This document shows positions 26,923-61,900 of a stretch of DNA of 64,000 bases, one piece after another. The DNA is taken from positions 69,378,001-69,442,000 of the forward strand of contig OZ024744.1 of the NCBI GenBank assembly GCA_964016885.1, read 5' to 3'. This stretch comes from Eledone cirrhosa. Lineage: Eukaryota. The number at the start of each line of letters is the position of its first letter. The first letter of the stretch is position 1. The notes below the pieces were generated by a model that was not told the DNA's origin, searched no databases, and was given only the letters and a program-made list of their open reading frames with translations. The translations under genes and the position numbers were made by a program.

Positions 26923-26941
26923 CACATATATATATATATAT

Positions 26942-27409
26942 CAAGTAAGTATGTTTTGAAACAGTGAGCGAGTTTGAAATTAGAAAATATATAGCTTTCA
27001 CCGTATTTTTAACTAAGGGAAATTTTAGCTTGATAACGGGGTTTAGAACCCTCAGATAAATGGAAAAAGATGAGTATTGACGTACATGTACGTCAATACT
27101 CATCTTTTTCCATTTATCTGAGGGTTCTAAACCCCACTATCAGGCTATATATTTTCTAATTTCAAACTCGCTCACTGTTTCAAAACATACTTACTTGCCA
27201 TTTAAACTCGCTAAGAATGTAGTTTCTAATTTGAATGGAAAGAGATGGGTGATGTGTTGGTGTAATGGTAGCACAGTGGTCGCGATAACCACAGATGTGG
27301 GTTCAACTCCCATGTACGTCAATACTCATCTTTTTCCATTTATCTAAACCCCGTTATCAAGCTAAAATTCCTTTAGTTAAAAATACGGTGAAAGCTATAT
27401 ATTTTCTAA
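26942..27409. mobile_element. Fold-back plus partial tandem insertion in (TA)n containing a tRNA-like domain
   Basis: Palindrome centred at 27086/27087 (arms 26942-27086 and 27087-27198, deletion in right arm); direct repeat restarts at 27311. Confidence 0.85.
27251..27321 (+). other. tRNA-like cloverleaf (Pol III A/B boxes), not a canonical tRNA
   Basis: Acceptor GATGTGT/GTACGTC, D stem GTGT/GCAC, anticodon stem GTGGT/ACCAC with loop CGCGATA (lacks U33 and purine 37), T stem GTGGG/CCCAT with loop TTCAACT. Confidence 0.75.
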
Positions 27410-27554
27410 GATATGTATATATATATATAATATAGTATAATTCAATATTATATAATAATTTTTACTAGAGGCACAAGGCCAGCAATTTTGGGAGGGGAGG
27501 GGGGAGGGAAGTCGATTAAATAGATCTCAGTGCATTACTGGTGCTCTATATATA

Positions 27555-28815: not shown

Positions 28816-29012
28816 AGTTTATCTCGGGTTCAATCAGGGGTAACCACAGTAAGTAAGGTACTCGATACATAGCAGAGTATAAATATTTAATATAGAAATG
28901 GCTTCTACAGAACTAGAACTGTTTCATTCGGGATAAATCATCAGGAAGCTCTGATGATTTCTCTCGAAATATAGAAATGGCTTCTCCTGTAGAAGCCATT
29001 TCTATATTAAAT
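28816..29012. mobile_element. Miniature fold-back family, copy 1 of 3 (others 45816-46012 and 50410-50596)
   Basis: Shared GTAAGTAAGGTACTC.ATACATAGCAGAGTATAAATATTTAA.ATAGAAATGGCTTCTA..GTTTCATTC followed by an inversion; TA-flanked. Confidence 0.85.
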
Positions 29013-29029
29013 ATATATATACTGTATGT

Positions 29030-32000
29030 ATTTAGGTTCTTCTGGTTTTATAATTTCACAAAGTTCTACCAATAGAGAGAGAGTCGGTTTCTAACATAGA
29101 CACAAGACTCTCTCATTGGAATTTACACACCAACTAGGTAGATATGTATGTATGCATGCATGTGTAGATATGGATGTTATTGTATGTGTGGATGCGTATG
29201 TTTTTAGTTGTATGTGTGCATATGTATATGCTTTGCATCTGTACATGTGTATATGCAGTTATTAGATGCAACATGTTTGGAATGTTTTACATATTTTTAC
29301 TGTTCCATTAATGGATTGTACTTGTAATTTCCTAACTAGGTGTGTTCTTTCTGTTCCTGTGAAGGCTAGCTTCTCAAGATTTGTATTGAGGCAGTTACTA
29401 ACATATCCCAGTGCCCCAATAATCACAGGCATAAATCTGAAGGTGTAATCAGGGTGGAGTATCTGCAGATTTCTCATCAGTTCTGCATAAATATTCTCCT
29501 TTTCACTAATCTTTGATATTATATTGACATCTGCTGGGCAGCTAGTTTCCACTACTATGCATGTTTTCTTCTCCCTGTCCCATATCATAATATCTGGTCT
29601 GTTATGCCTGCATTTTATTGGATTTTACTGGAACATTCCACCTGTACTCTTTCATATTATGTACATGGATGTCTTCCACATTGCTGTAGCTTTTAATGTG
29701 TTTATTATCGGGGCTATCTTTTTTACGAACTGCATTGTACAGTGTTTTGGCCACTACATCATGCCTCATAGGTAGATAGTACCGCGATGACATCTTTGGA
29801 CAGCTGCTGATGATATGGGTGATATCCTCGATGTTAGTCCTGCACAGTTTGCACTTGTTATCACATTTAGGTGTTTTGCCTGCATCCCGATCTCTTTTGT
29901 GAATCAGGTATTTCGTGTTAATCTCCTGTTCTTGGATTGCAAAAACGTATCCTTCAAAGTGGGAGCCAATATAGCGGTTGTTGGTCCAAGATAGACTACT
30001 TTCCTTATCTATATTACTCTCACTCTGGAGCTCCCTGGCAACATATCCATGCATGATTTTTTGCTGATAAGTATGTAGTTTTTCATCCATGGATTCACTG
30101 CGATACTGCTGAGCGACTTCCTTGGGTGTGAGTTTTGGATTATCACACAGGGAAATCTCTCGAGGAGTTCCTTCCCAACTCTCATGATCTTATCTGTTTC
30201 ATGCAGATAGACTTGCTCGAGAGACGGGCTCCTACGCTTCGAGGTTCGTAGATGTTGTCGGAGAGATATGATGCGACATTTAAATGTTGTCTGGACTGAT
30301 GTTAGGCCTCTGCCTCCCTGCTTACGTTTCAAGTAAAAGTGGTCTATGTCACTGTTGATGTGGAAGTTTCCGGTGTTGTTTAGTATTTTTCGAGTTCCAA
30401 CATCAACTGCTCGGATTTCGTCTATCGTCCAATTGAGTCCTCCAAACGTTGGTGTTAGGACAGGCACAGCAAACACATTGTGAGACTGTTTTTTTTTGCG
30501 CAGAGAGTTCCGATGACCAAATCTTTCTTAATCGGGTGTAGTATTCCCTGGTTACGCGTTCTTTATTACATATACCATTATAGGATATGTTCTCATCTAT
30601 CCCTAGGTATCTGTAGCAGTCCTCATTAGATATCGGTGAAACAGTTAGGCCATTGATGACAGTGTTGCTAGATTGGGTTGTTGTTTTTCCCCGCTTTACA
30701 GTCATGTATGAGCATTTATCTTGGCCAAACTCCATTCCTATATCCTTTGAGAACGTTGTAACCAGGTCAAGATTTTTCTTTATCCCATCCATGTTCTTGG
30801 CATAGAGTTTCAGATCGTGCACAAAGAAATTATGGGTTAGGTTCGTATTTCTGTCCTCCTGTGAGCCAATGAGGTATCCTTCACATTTCTTGAGCAGAAA
30901 GGACAAGGGGTTTAATGACAAGATGAATAATATCACAGAGAAACTGTCCCCCTGAAATATACCCCTGCAATATTTTATTTTATCAGTGAAAATAGAGTCC
31001 TCCCTCTCTGTCTATAACCTTAGGATAGTAGCCCAAGAAGAAGACAGCCTCTCTATGGCTCTGACAATAATGTCTGGGACTTTAGCAAGTTGGAGGACCT
31101 CTATCATCCAAGAGTGGGGAACAGAATCGAAAGCTTTCCTGTAGTCCAGCCAGACTGTAGCCATATTCCTCCTAAGTTGTCGCACCTCCGACATCTCAGT
31201 TTTGTTGATTAGGAGTTGTTCAGCACATCCCCAAACCCTTTCTTTCCAGCTGCTTGTTCATCTGTGATGATGTTATTATTTTCACAGTGATCTTGGCGGA
31301 ATCGGTTCAGGCAGGCTGTATACATCTTATACATCAGGTTCTGGCATGCAATGGGTCGGTAGTTTTTTGCCAAGTGGGTGTCTTTGTTCTTGGGGACCAG
31401 TAATGTTTGTGCTAATGTCAACCATTCTGGTATAAGTGTATCTCCTTTGTTGGTAGAGGTCAGTAAGATACCTCCGATAGAATGTCAATTTTTTTCTACC
31501 AGTAGCCGACAATCATGTCTCTTCCTGGTGTTTTCTTATCATGGAGTTTTTCCTATCACAGTCTCAAGGGTACCCTCACTTATTTCGTATGTTTTTGTTG
31601 AAGTGTAGGAGCAATCATTTTTTCAGATTTCTCTTAGCCACACTGCATCTTGGTTGAAATTCTTCTTTTCACCCCATATTTTGCTCCAAAAGGAATCTAT
31701 GTCTTTCTGGGATGGGGCCTCAGTGACACTTATTATTTTCCCCTTCATATCTCTATAGACTGATGTTTGGTTTCGTCTGAATCTTTTATTAAGCACTTTT
31801 CTCTCATCTACCTTCTTCAGGTATCGGCGTTTTTCGCTGACAACTCTCAATTCTTGTTTGAGGGTGATCAGCTTATATTGGAGAGTTCTGGTTCTACTGT
31901 TACCAAACATCGTCTCTATTTTATTTTTCACTCTTTGTTGGTGAGGAATGAGGTTTTTTTGTGTTTGTTTGCATGTAAGGAGCATTGTCACATATCCTAT

Positions 32001-33140
32001 GTTTTTTCGTAGGTCATCAATCTTTTTTTCTATTTTAATTATATATGATAGTATTTTTGGTGGTGTTCTGTTCTTGTTAATATCTCTGCTATCATCAAGA
32101 TAATGCTTCACTGTCGTTGCTAAGGCATATAAACAGGTGTTGATTTGCCAAAATGTTGGGGTTTTTATCCGTCGTAAATATTCATCCCCTATTTCGTCAA
32201 TAGCACGTAATATTTCATTATTTGGTCTTTTATTAAACATTGTCGTTTTAATACGTTCAACAAGAGAGATATTTATACATGAATTAATTTCTCTCTGGAA
32301 GATTTCGTTGAGGGAAAATTTCAATTGTTTATACTTTTGAATCGATAGTATTTTCCACAACAGTCGAGGTAGACTCGGATGGTACACGTGGTGTCAAATT
32401 TATTCGATTATTATTATTATTTCTTCGATTATTATTATTATCGATAGTGTTTTCCCCAGCATTTGAGGTAGACTTAGATGGTACATGTGATGTCAAGTTT
32501 CTTACAGGCATAGTTGTTTCAAGGCGCTGTTCGAACTGGCCGCTAGGAAGTCTAGTAGCATGGCGACCTGTAGCACGTGTTGTTGATAACATGTTTGTTG
32601 TGGGGGACTTACAATTAATAATATTTATCTTATTTTTACGTTCAACAAACATCGCTTGTTGGCGTAATTGTTTCGCTGTGAAATAATTTAGCTCTGGGTG
32701 TATTTCGTCCCAGTGTAGCTTCATTCTGTTCATATAGCCAATGGAGGGATTGTTTTTTGCCATTTTATAACAATTAAATAAATCATCATTAAGTTTGCAA
32801 CTCCAAGTGAAATGCGATTTATAATTTCGGTTTCTTCTGTAGCTACAACTGAATAAAGTTTGTTTACCTTCCTTGTTATTTGTCTTCGGTACTTCCATAA
32901 TTTTGTTGTTGATGTTGTGTTCAGCCATGCTGTTTGTAGCAAATCCTTGTAAAATGAATTATGTATTTAGTCGGATATCTCCACGAATTCGAATAAAAGG
33001 TGTCTTCAGAAGATATAGTTAGAAGAATAACCAGTTATTCAACATGACTGTAGTTGTGGCATTACTGTTGGAGATAGTATTCATCTTAAATTTAATAAAT
33101 AGTCTACCACGCTAAAATATGCGACTGATCTTGTTGACTG
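29030..33140 (-). mobile_element. Near full-length, frameshifted R4/Dong-type LINE (RT + CCHC + RLE)
   Basis: NYRPIACQNLMYK, WLDYRKAFDSVPHSW, GIFQGDSFS, FVHDLKLY, CKLC..HIISSC, RHD, PD(I)MIWD..ETSCP..MPVIIGALG; (TATG)n or TACATACA at the ends. Confidence 0.93.
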
Positions 33141-45766: not shown

Positions 45767-46020
45767 GTACATATATACGTACATATATACATACATGCAT
45801 GTATGTATATTTGCGTATCCCGGGTTCAATCAGGAGCATCCACAGTAAGTAAGGTACTCAATACATAGCAGAGTATAAATATTTAACATAGAAATGGCTT
45901 CTAAACGACAAGAACTGTTTCATTCCAAGGAAATTGACCCTGGTGATTTCCTTGGAATGAAACAGTTCTTGTGCAGTAGAAGCCATTTCTATGTTAAATA
46001 TATATAATATATATAATATA

Positions 46021-46869
46021 TACAATTCTTGCCACCCTAGACACATTAAAATTAATATTCCCTACAACTTAGCCAAGAGAATCTGTACTATAGTCTCCAA
46101 TAAAAACATCTGTTACTTACGGCTACAAGAACTAAAGGAAACACTCATAAGCAGGGACTGCCCTGCATCACTAATTGACAATGAAATCCAACGTGCCCTG
46201 AAACTCAGTACCCAGGACCTTAGATATCCAAAAGCAAACCAACCGAAACTAAAAGCTCTTCCAGACATCTCCACACACAACCCCCTCAACAATGAGGCCT
46301 TTGACACCATCCTCCAGAACATCCCTATGTTACAGAAGTACCATAGAATGAACGAAATCTTTCGAACACACGATATCATAAAGAGCAAAAGACAATCTAA
46401 GTCAATGAAAAACATCCTAACACATGCCAAGGTACTACCAACGACAACAACGAAACCCACAGTAAAAAAATGCGATAGACCCAACTGTGGCATATACATC
46501 AACCTAATAGAGGGTTCGGAATTCTATTTCAAACAGGGACAACGTTTTATAGTAAAGCACAATTTCACATGCGCATCAGAAAACCTAATATATGTATTAA
46601 CTTGCTCAGGTTGTCGAGAAGAATACATAGGCCAGACTAAAAACAGCCTCCGCCAACGCATGACTGTCCATAGATCCCAAATTAAAATACGGCAATACAG
46701 GAAAATACCACTGAGTGAACACATTGATACCTGTGCCGCCCAAAATCATCCCAACTTCAGAATCTTTCCCCTCTACAAATGTAAAGATAATGCCACCCAC
46801 ACCCAGCGCATCAGCAAGGAATCTTACTTTATTAACAAATACGGACCCCGTCTAAACACTTCTCCCTAA
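46021..46869 (+). CDS. Penelope-like (Neptune-like) ORF, 5'-truncated: RT thumb, Zn-motif linker, GIY-YIG
   Basis: NSCHPRHIKINIPYNLAKRI; KKCDRPNC..HNFTC; NLIYVLTCSGCREEYIGQT..LRQRMTVH; ESYFINKYGPRLN. Open frame begins right after a TA run. Confidence 0.92.
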   Translation, partial: YNSCHPRHIKINIPYNLAKRICTIVSNKNICYLRLQELKETLISRDCPASLIDNEIQRALKLSTQDLRYPKANQPKLKALPDISTHNPLNNEAFDTILQNIPMLQKYHRMNEIFRTHDIIKSKRQSKSMKNILTHAKVLPTTTTKPTVKKCDRPNCGIYINLIEGSEFYFKQGQRFIVKHNFTCASENLIYVLTCSGCREEYIGQTKNSLRQRMTVHRSQIKIRQYRKIPLSEHIDTCAAQNHPNFRIFPLYKCKDNATHTQRISKESYFINKYGPRLNTSP

Positions 46870-61067: not shown

Positions 61068-61900
61068 TTATCCATATAGGTTGAGGGAAGTTCCGGCCCT
61101 AAAGTGTCTACATGTACCAAAGAAGTCGGTCCTGAGGTTTATTAGGCTACTCCCACCACTTAGTATCTCGAGGGTCTCGCTCAGACAGAGGTTGCAGTTG
61201 CCAGAACCTCCTCTATCAGGTGGCACTTTCCTGATTTTGGACCAGGTCAGAGAGTACAGGGTCCTGTCCAGCTTGACTTTCCAGATCAGTTCGGAAAGAA
61301 CCGTACTTTTCTTTTTGTCCTCCCTATTAAAGGAACGGCGATGGTTATACCATCTGTCTTTGAAGCTCGTTGATGTGGCTCCTATGTAAAGGTGCTCAGA
61401 GTTGGGTTTTTTTTCTCTACATCCGTATACTAAGTTCTTCATCAGGCATTCATTACTAAGGTAGTATAATGTGGGGATTCTGCAGTTGCAGGAGGTGGTC
61501 GACCCCTGGTTGCCTATTGTGGGGTTCCCGTTGCGTAGTAGAGGGTGGTCTACCCCTGGGCCCAGTGGCGGGTCCCTGGGTCTGTTTGGGTTCCCAGGGT
61601 GGGTTCCTGGTTCACCATTTCTTCCCTCCACATGGCTCTGCTGGGTGCCTATATTGTCAGCTGCTGGCTGTGTGTGGATTCTAAGTCTACTCCTATTGAT
61701 GCTAGCTATGTGCTGGGCTTCGTTGCGCGTGGTAGAATACGAGAGCATCACCGTGTGTCTGTTGAAGATTTTGTGGTATATGTGGTCCCTGGGGAAGCAT
61801 TTATATAGTGCTCTAAAGAATGACCGAGCCAGGCTGGTCTTCAGGCCCGCTAAGTAGGGTGGGTGTACCACGTAATATTTCCTAGTCTATTCCTATGTGG
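61068..61900 (-). CDS. Penelope-like linker and GIY-YIG endonuclease (partial)
   Basis: PPY..KTSLARSFF..FP..KIFNRHTVMLSYS; CNCR..CLMKNLVY..YIGATSTSFKDRWYNHRRSF..LSELIW..CNLCLSE. Confidence 0.9.

Follow-up and report, generated by a model that had tools for sequence, protein, structure and literature searches.

In the part of the SM-alpha literature drawn on here (PMC6765202), SM-alpha and Sj-alpha are short non-coding tandem units with an apparent Pol III promoter, and the SM-alpha tandems are described as requiring the upstream unit to transcribe the next one; SM-alpha's helper is not named there. The initial annotation of the locus analysed here named the schistosome SM-alpha repeats as its closest analogue, and they are still the closest, sharing the unit type and the apparent promoter; the same source gives SM-alpha an active hammerhead, whereas none was found in the tRNA-headed family described below, in which a full cloverleaf sits on a long stem and a tail and a fold-back of the Penelope-like element (PLE) type could be seen directly. 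Metazoan non-LTR retrozymes, in the available parts of two accounts (PMC7229834; bioRxiv 10.64898/2026.07.22.740005), are non-autonomous units of 170-400 nt, dispersed and in tandem, with a type I hammerhead and circular RNA, and they have been proposed to be mobilised by PLEs or derived from them. The present units (259-290 bp) share the size, the lack of autonomy and the dispersed and tandem arrangement, but instead of one type I hammerhead per unit they have a tRNA head.

Non-autonomous passengers with pLTR-like and head-to-tail insertions, as seen here, are also known among the Chlamys PLEs, such as MRC1. The accessible text on this clade (PMC8557442) reports no canonical hammerheads and mentions, within its extent, only the tRNA for selenocysteine. 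It adds that MRC1-type elements generally have 3' sequence in common with an autonomous family, whereas no such sequence was found here among 66 PLE loci.

The window, that is, the whole stretch of 64,000 nucleotides of Eledone cirrhosa DNA that was analysed (contig OZ024744.1, positions 69,378,001 to 69,442,000), contains at 26942-27409 a damaged copy of a non-coding repeat family with units of 259-290 bp. The insertion consists of an inverted arm and a direct arm with (TA)n tracts on both flanks (Table 1), so that the proposed unit of roughly 260 bp in inverted and partial tandem copies could be mapped as described; the unit length of 259 bp was read from the tandem at another locus (L013). 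The outer end of the inverted arm, at 26942, is the 'long' 3' end, presumably made at reverse transcription (RT) start site 2, and that of the direct arm, at 27409, is the 'short' 3' end, presumably made at RT start site 1. Elsewhere in the window, broken LINE-like reading frames were recognised by eye at 29602-32958.

Table 1. Positions of the features in the window
Feature	Positions	Strand	Basis or remark
(TA)n target tract, left	26925..26941	.	Sequence
Inverted, 5'-truncated arm, unit positions 114-259	26942..27088	-	
Fold-back centre, 4-nt palindrome common to both arms	27085..27088	.	
Direct arm, about 1.4 units; two deletions, of 33 nt and 9 nt	27085..27409	+	
Hairpin A	27120..27135	+	Intact in first partial unit; copy in second unit damaged by the 9-nt deletion
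'Tail' segment, about 38 nt, between short and long 3' end positions	27159..27197	+	
Hairpin C, 3' strand	27172-27178	+	Inside the tail segment
Leader, purine-rich, 5' strand of acceptor extension	27234..27250	+	
tRNA-like cloverleaf, 71 nt	27251..27321	+	ARAGORN and Rfam
A box (D arm)	27258..27268	+	Sequence; consensus
B box (T arm)	27300..27310	+	Sequence; consensus
3-nt bulge, discriminator plus 2 nt, at junction of acceptor stem and extension	27321..27323	+	
Trailer, pyrimidine-rich, 3' strand of extension	27324..27340	+	
T5 run in trailer	27331-27335	+	10 nt past discriminator
Hairpin B	27360..27378	+	96% of cells paired across subfamilies
Hairpin C, 5' strand	27385..27391	+	Short 3' end lies in its large loop
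(TA)n target tract, right	27410..27432	.	
3' fragment of Neptune-like PLE family, candidate helper	45961..46869	+	GIY-YIG match

The genome searched comprised 3.0 Gb in 1,796 contigs. DNA searches returned 2,012 and 2,370 candidates, with 40 scored in each, and an exact 23-nt D-arm pattern gave 1,722 matches (295 for the window's subfamily, S1, and 1,427 for the others) and 0 in the controls. The locus is therefore not single-copy; a single copy was the first of two outcomes that the initial annotation had named as fatal to its own reading. The units fell into subfamilies of 259 bp (S1), 260 bp (S2), 290 bp (S3) and about 275 bp (S4, older), plus a type of 271-272 bp, with a mean divergence from the majority sequence of 2.6% in S1, 5.3% in S2 and 2.4% in S3. 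Versions like S2, S3 and S4 were present in contigs and reads of two organisms in public sequence runs, and a metagenome scan gave 0 matches.

About 500 surplus minus-strand matches to the D-arm pattern most probably stem from a 290-bp satellite on one contig (C28), where the S3 unit was found at four sampled points between 19.4406 and 19.653 Mb, a span of about 212 kb. This satellite is a retroelement-derived array of tRNA-like units. It extends from C28:19,440,625 to at least 19,653,000 (L324-L327) and contains higher-order repeats, whose period was six units at one of the points sampled. At other loci (L298 plus L198, at C1:131.4589-131.4658 Mb; L328; L329; L330), the arrays found range from about 5 to more than 30 units, and the C1 array retains the fold-back and both proper ends. 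One fold-back array of 26 units showed mostly star-like divergence, with a mean pairwise value of 15% and local duplications. Other arrays contained higher-order repeats and would therefore have expanded at the DNA level. For a rolling-circle origin of the arrays, as for circular against multimeric templates, these patterns point both ways.

A role of the unit as the pLTR of an autonomous element was considered and rejected, as two units lying 2.7 kb apart (L031) proved to be one interrupted copy. The interrupting insertion (L031:2276-4904), which splits a single family unit, is unrelated, has long direct terminal repeats and contains no PLE open reading frame. ARAGORN found no tRNA in 36 PLE loci.

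The mode of insertion was followed in a sample of 70 position-ordered S1 loci, from which, after removal of two duplicates and one long array, 61 insertions were parsed. Fold-backs with both 3' ends facing outward accounted for 43 of the 61 and single-orientation copies for 17; none (0/61) faced inward. Most outer 3' ends belonged to one of two groups separated by about 37-45 nt, and a long end was paired with a short one in 35 of the 43 fold-backs, where independent ends would give 19 (P 6e-7); the same pairing was visible in S2, S3 and S4. In this S1 sample, 77 of the 104 outer 3' ends adjoined TA-rich DNA, a target like that of Neptune, Naiad and Hydra PLEs, and target site duplications were unreadable inside the TA tracts. 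A 'tail' of 30-40 bp is described as common to PLEs and unique to them, and marks two internal RT starts (PMC11167929); tandem and inverted insertions with a preference for TA, associated with a CX2-5CxxC motif, are described for PLEs in the consulted part of PMC8557442. The family thus has the anatomy of a PLE passenger, with fold-back and tandem insertions, a one-sided tail and a (TA)n target. Its copy number, fold-backs and long and short ends strongly support the initial view of a non-autonomous, multicopy element mobilised by PLEs, and mobilisation by PLE machinery is very probable.

The second outcome feared in the initial annotation, that other copies would be standard SINEs, was not encountered either: none of the 61 S1 insertions was a SINE-type copy ending in poly(A), and neither a LINE-type 3' tail nor fixed termini were seen in the parsed copies, which end at two internal sites abutting (TA)n. 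As is generally known, tRNA-derived SINEs are non-coding repeats of high copy number headed by A and B boxes. The present family shares these traits, and probably an RNA start at the head, but it has no LINE-type 3' tail or poly(A); it has an internal Pol III terminator, two internal sites set its 3' ends, and its insertions are inverted and in tandem. A DNA-level element, whether a satellite or a Helentron- or MITE-like element, or else an ordinary LINE-driven SINE, would agree with the existence of large arrays with higher-order repeats. Against it stand the strand-specific RNA folding described below, the variable 5' truncation, the two-site 3' ends and the parsed copies free of fixed termini and poly(A) tails. 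This reading is largely refuted for dispersed copies and is highly improbable overall.

As for the tRNA-like part, the four-arm cloverleaf of the initial annotation was recovered by ARAGORN, which called a tRNA at 27250-27322, and by the Rfam model RF00005, which scored 27251-27321 at 44.3 bits (gathering score 29, E 4.7e-8). In S1-S3, both the A and the B box are almost invariant; position 58 of the B box is T in S4. The anticodon loops vary between subfamilies (CGA, GGA, GGC and others), so the cloverleaf is not a decoding tRNA; the window copy has G at anticodon-loop position 33. Identity of the unit to host tRNAs was 35-42/72 for tRNA-Gln and 38-41/72 for tRNA-Trp. Identity to seven tRNAs from viral contigs was 41-50/72, but these had been picked by the 23-nt pattern and their likeness is therefore no evidence of a viral origin. 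Eight viral-contig tRNAs with this D-arm pattern were seen in all (L208-L215), six of them Trp. A host tRNA-Gln cluster (L219-L225, C1:168.21-168.23 Mb) was observed to contain repeated copies with a CTA (amber) anticodon.

The extension of the acceptor stem proposed in the initial annotation, 27234-27250 with 27324-27340, was found to pair as stated, over 17-18 bp with 1-2 further pairs outside; 2 of 17 pairs are G-U. The preference for the plus strand deduced from these pairs was borne out by folding, which gave -43.7 kcal/mol for the plus strand (z -5.01, 0/200 shuffles as good) and -28.8 kcal/mol for the minus strand (z -2.77, 2/200 shuffles as good). The tRNA part alone was no more stable than its own shuffles (z -0.31). 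The duplex of leader and trailer reached -19.9 to -25.2 kcal/mol in the majority sequences of four subfamilies, compared with -0.9 to -9.3 kcal/mol in the flanks of 33 host tRNA-Gln and tRNA-Trp genes. Between subfamilies, the stem varied by G-U changes on one side and, in S4, by a lengthening on both; no clean base swap was seen across them, and a C-A mismatch at position -5 was frequent in S3 (16/38). In a check for an ADAR footprint, A>G changes numbered 13/907 in the stem and 46/9526 elsewhere, a figure driven by variants common to sub-lineages.

The 5' ends of the arms were counted among those that reach tRNA position +10. In S1, 24 of 87 arms ended between +10 and -7, compared with 6-13% in later 17-nt bins (P 1e-4, for a bin picked post hoc). 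In S2-S4, 20 of 98 did so (P 0.008; S2 13/47, S3 4/38, S4 3/13), a test that included two S2 arms, L267 and L275, from the discovery sample; S3 alone showed no enrichment. Both arms ended at the head in 8 of the 43 fold-backs and one arm alone in 3. About three quarters of the arms extended beyond the head. Over 182 heads, 6 stops lay in -16 to -9, 19 in -8 to -2, 33 in +2 to +10 and 7 touched -1/+1. A local upstream edge therefore appears near -8 (19 versus 6 stops, P 0.003); against the global background, itself inflated by indels, the 19 stops, including a few false ones at internal indels, do not significantly exceed the 15.7 expected (P 0.24). A second cluster of eight arm 5' ends was observed at unit positions +77 to +80, just ahead of T5, and could reflect either pausing of RT at the tRNA body or microhomology to the leader. 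An apparent peak of 5' ends at unit position 53 arose in part from a base private to the reference copy, and the count was repeated with a majority reference.

Because the arm 5' ends pile up at the head, the RNA probably begins there, as in SINEs. The initial annotation had contrasted the family with SINEs for its internal tRNA, which holds for the DNA insertion and probably not for the RNA. From the positions of the stops, the transcription start zone would be -8 to -4, at about 27243-27247 in the window. In rodent SINEs, Pol III starts 11-15 nt upstream of the A box, and the ends upstream of +1 are compatible with such a start. T5 sits where host tRNA genes carry T4-T13 terminators, and the S4 majority has two T7 runs. 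The claim that the element is Pol III-driven is thus favoured by the A and B boxes, the terminator-like T5 and the 5' ends at the head, but is weakened because T5 must be read through, and the T7 runs and altered B box of S4 and the many arms that extend beyond the head also count against it; transcription by Pol III from the tRNA-like head is moderately supported by these sequence features.

The same data bear on a different reading, in which PLEs would mobilise the family from transcripts made by Pol II or by host read-through. The tRNA gene and its terminator would then be a captured relic whose fold serves only for stabilisation or protein binding, and RT pausing or junction microhomology would account for the cluster of 5' ends. 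Under Pol II, the T5 and T7 runs and the B-box change of S4 would be harmless, and the many arms that pass the head and the lack of a cluster in S3 would be expected. The arms, however, co-terminate at the head (8 versus 3), an RT pause would be expected at the 3' entry of the stem rather than at its 5' exit, and the near-invariance of both boxes in S1-S3 counts against a relic. We regard it as improbable.

Processing by RNase P or RNase Z instead of a ribozyme had also been suggested in the initial annotation. Cleavage by RNase Z is disfavoured, since no arm of the position-ordered S1 sample started at +72 to +76 and a paired trailer is reported, in the part of PMC8457004 drawn on, to inhibit this enzyme. 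The same part describes MALAT1 mascRNA and MEN-beta menRNA, which share with the family a tRNA-like fold, a purine-rich leader/trailer extension and a bulge at the junction; these, however, are single-copy lncRNA ends with a shorter extension and with the bulge 5' of a cut that RNase P is proven to make, whereas the family is a mobile repeat and only a putative RNase P substrate. An alternative was therefore weighed in which PLE mobilisation is kept and the tRNA fold, acting as an RNase P substrate as in MALAT1/mascRNA, would do the hammerhead's job in retrozymes: RNase P would cut once per unit, RNase Z would be blocked by the leader/trailer stem, and the unit-length RNAs, with their ends kept close by this stem, would be ligated into circles.

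For this alternative, the extension stem is retained in all subfamilies, and bulged extended acceptors are said in the cited part of PMC8457004 to promote RNase P. A share of the arm 5' ends may lie at +1: stops at -1/+1 occur in 7 of the 182 heads, and a +1 end with a single base of microhomology could also account for the six at -1. Read-through of the terminator would be unnecessary, and arms of up to 655 nt as well as the star-like 26-unit fold-back array would fit circular templates. The ends upstream of +1, however, do not come from an RNase P cut, and many clean junctions lie at -8 to -2, where such a cut could not produce them. Moreover, it is the 3' side that carries the bulge, the base at -1 is paired in S1, S2 and S4, A58 is missing in S4, and the higher-order repeats of the arrays point to expansion of DNA. 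RNase P ends (5'-P, 3'-OH) also differ from the RtcB substrate used by retrozymes, which counts against it as well. Taken as a whole, this alternative is unlikely but has to be kept in sight; its stricter form, in which a mascRNA-like RNase P substrate has replaced the hammerhead and the circles are reverse-transcribed by a Penelope-like enzyme, is somewhat less credible.

Downstream of the cloverleaf, three hairpins (A, B and C) were found, conserved folds of which B and C may form the RT-start module. In 23 natural copies from all subfamilies, 87.5% of the cells of the proposed structure were paired, compared with 39-50% when the partners were slid; two-sided changes occurred in 24 cells, a covariation count that is inflated by related sequences. 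The closing pair of hairpin B was G-C in 67 copies, A-T in 9, G-A in 8 and A-C in 6, and pair 148:183 of hairpin C was T-A in 65 copies and C-G in 8.

Whether a ribozyme resides in the unit was approached with several searches. The hammerhead core CUGANGA was absent from both strands of every subfamily majority, and no hammerhead half-core, including the U3-A8 variant, was found on the sense strand, in agreement with the original remark that no convincing core was present. No Rfam ribozyme was detected at E<=10 or, in a further search, at E<=1. An HDV-like fold was absent from the sense strand by our own descriptor, a tool used without a positive control, which matched only the antisense strand of S4 (0/60 shuffles). 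A self-cleaving ribozyme that these searches failed to recognise would make the family a true retrozyme, and its size, its tandem habit and the conserved hairpins A-C match retrozymes as described in the consulted part of PMC7229834; given the empty sense-strand and Rfam searches, we consider it very unlikely. In other parts of the window, a hammerhead-like core (CUGAUGA...GAAA) followed by a long hairpin was noted by eye at 28950-29000, within a repeat that resembles, again by eye, the segment 45812-45995. Another element of about 120 nt in (TA)n, with 2,715 candidates, carried only half a hammerhead (GAAA, stem III and GUC) in the loci inspected (L331-L355), among which no full-length parent was seen.

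The enzyme that could mobilise the family was sought among PLEs. A Neptune-like PLE family (family B), with a 3' fragment in the window (Table 1), is the candidate helper. Its full unit of 4,734 bp (L093) encodes RT plus, at the C terminus, a GIY-YIG domain with a CX4CX2C motif, an instance of the TA-associated CX2-5CxxC motif, and many copies are intact. Each of its 11 two-ended copies (11/11), lying in (TA)n, paired a short end with a long one, the two differing by about 39 nt. This pattern, which matches that of the tRNA-headed family, also identifies the tRNA strand of the unit as that of the RNA. Family B is young, with a median of 0.34% from its own majority in its best 29 matches, a biased sample. 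When the unit was compared with 66 PLE loci (about five families; more than 10,000 candidates exist in the genome), no significant similarity was found, and family B is a putative partner.

At L093:5799-9451, two frames were observed in family B, an upstream one of 455 aa that matches nothing in Pfam and, in -1 phase, one of 784 aa for RT/GIY-YIG; their overlap of about 67 nt is suggestive of a programmed frameshift. One full family B unit lacked CUGANGA and any canonical hammerhead core. In the window copy (27159-27175), the short 3' end is followed by an AACT(C/T)G motif, a possible RT determinant. It stands at the same place in S3 and in two families of Neptune-like PLEs; in S2 and S4 it is changed. 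A second GIY-YIG PLE fragment, with a weak Pfam match, lies at 61068-61886 in the window.

The reading that we prefer, with a probability of roughly 0.55, combines a Pol III start, read-through by a minority of transcripts, Neptune-type priming at two sites and head-to-head joining of the cDNAs, with no cleavage. Pol III would initiate about 4-8 nt ahead of the cloverleaf; the majority of transcripts would end at T5 and a minority would continue into the next tandem unit. A PLE protein would recognise the module of hairpins B and C and nick (TA)n on both strands, and two cDNAs would be primed inside the RNA at two sites about 40 nt from each other, giving one long and one short outer end. The cDNAs would then be joined head to head at their stops, often the RNA 5' end, to give the fold-back. 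RNA cleavage would be dispensable because PLE RT starts internally, and hammerhead cleavage was found to be unnecessary in vitro (PMC11167929). Tandems would be obligatory because the segment from the long end to the next head can be copied only from multimeric or circular RNA, and the whole unit would be regenerated only from copies with at least two tandem heads. The leader/trailer stem would form in the downstream units of a multimer and most likely protects the tRNA-like domain from RNase Z, which would cut the promoter off the RT-start module.

The family is like the retrozymes and SM-alpha in its working, without the hammerhead that defines them. Searches of the open-access literature turned up no earlier description of a PLE passenger with a tRNA head; Repbase or Dfam may list the family under another label. 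SINEs generally borrow the enzymes of LINEs, and a tRNA-type head combined with PLE-type ends would extend the SINE strategy to another class of retrotransposon. The finding also suggests that small PLE passengers do without a ribozyme. In practical terms, the family offers a natural substrate of 259 nt with two mapped RT-start sites and hairpins kept in at least four subfamilies. With a young and intact candidate enzyme in the same genome, the RNA feature recognised by a PLE RT becomes directly testable, and the formation of fold-backs and tandems and the purpose of the hammerhead could be tested with the family as well.
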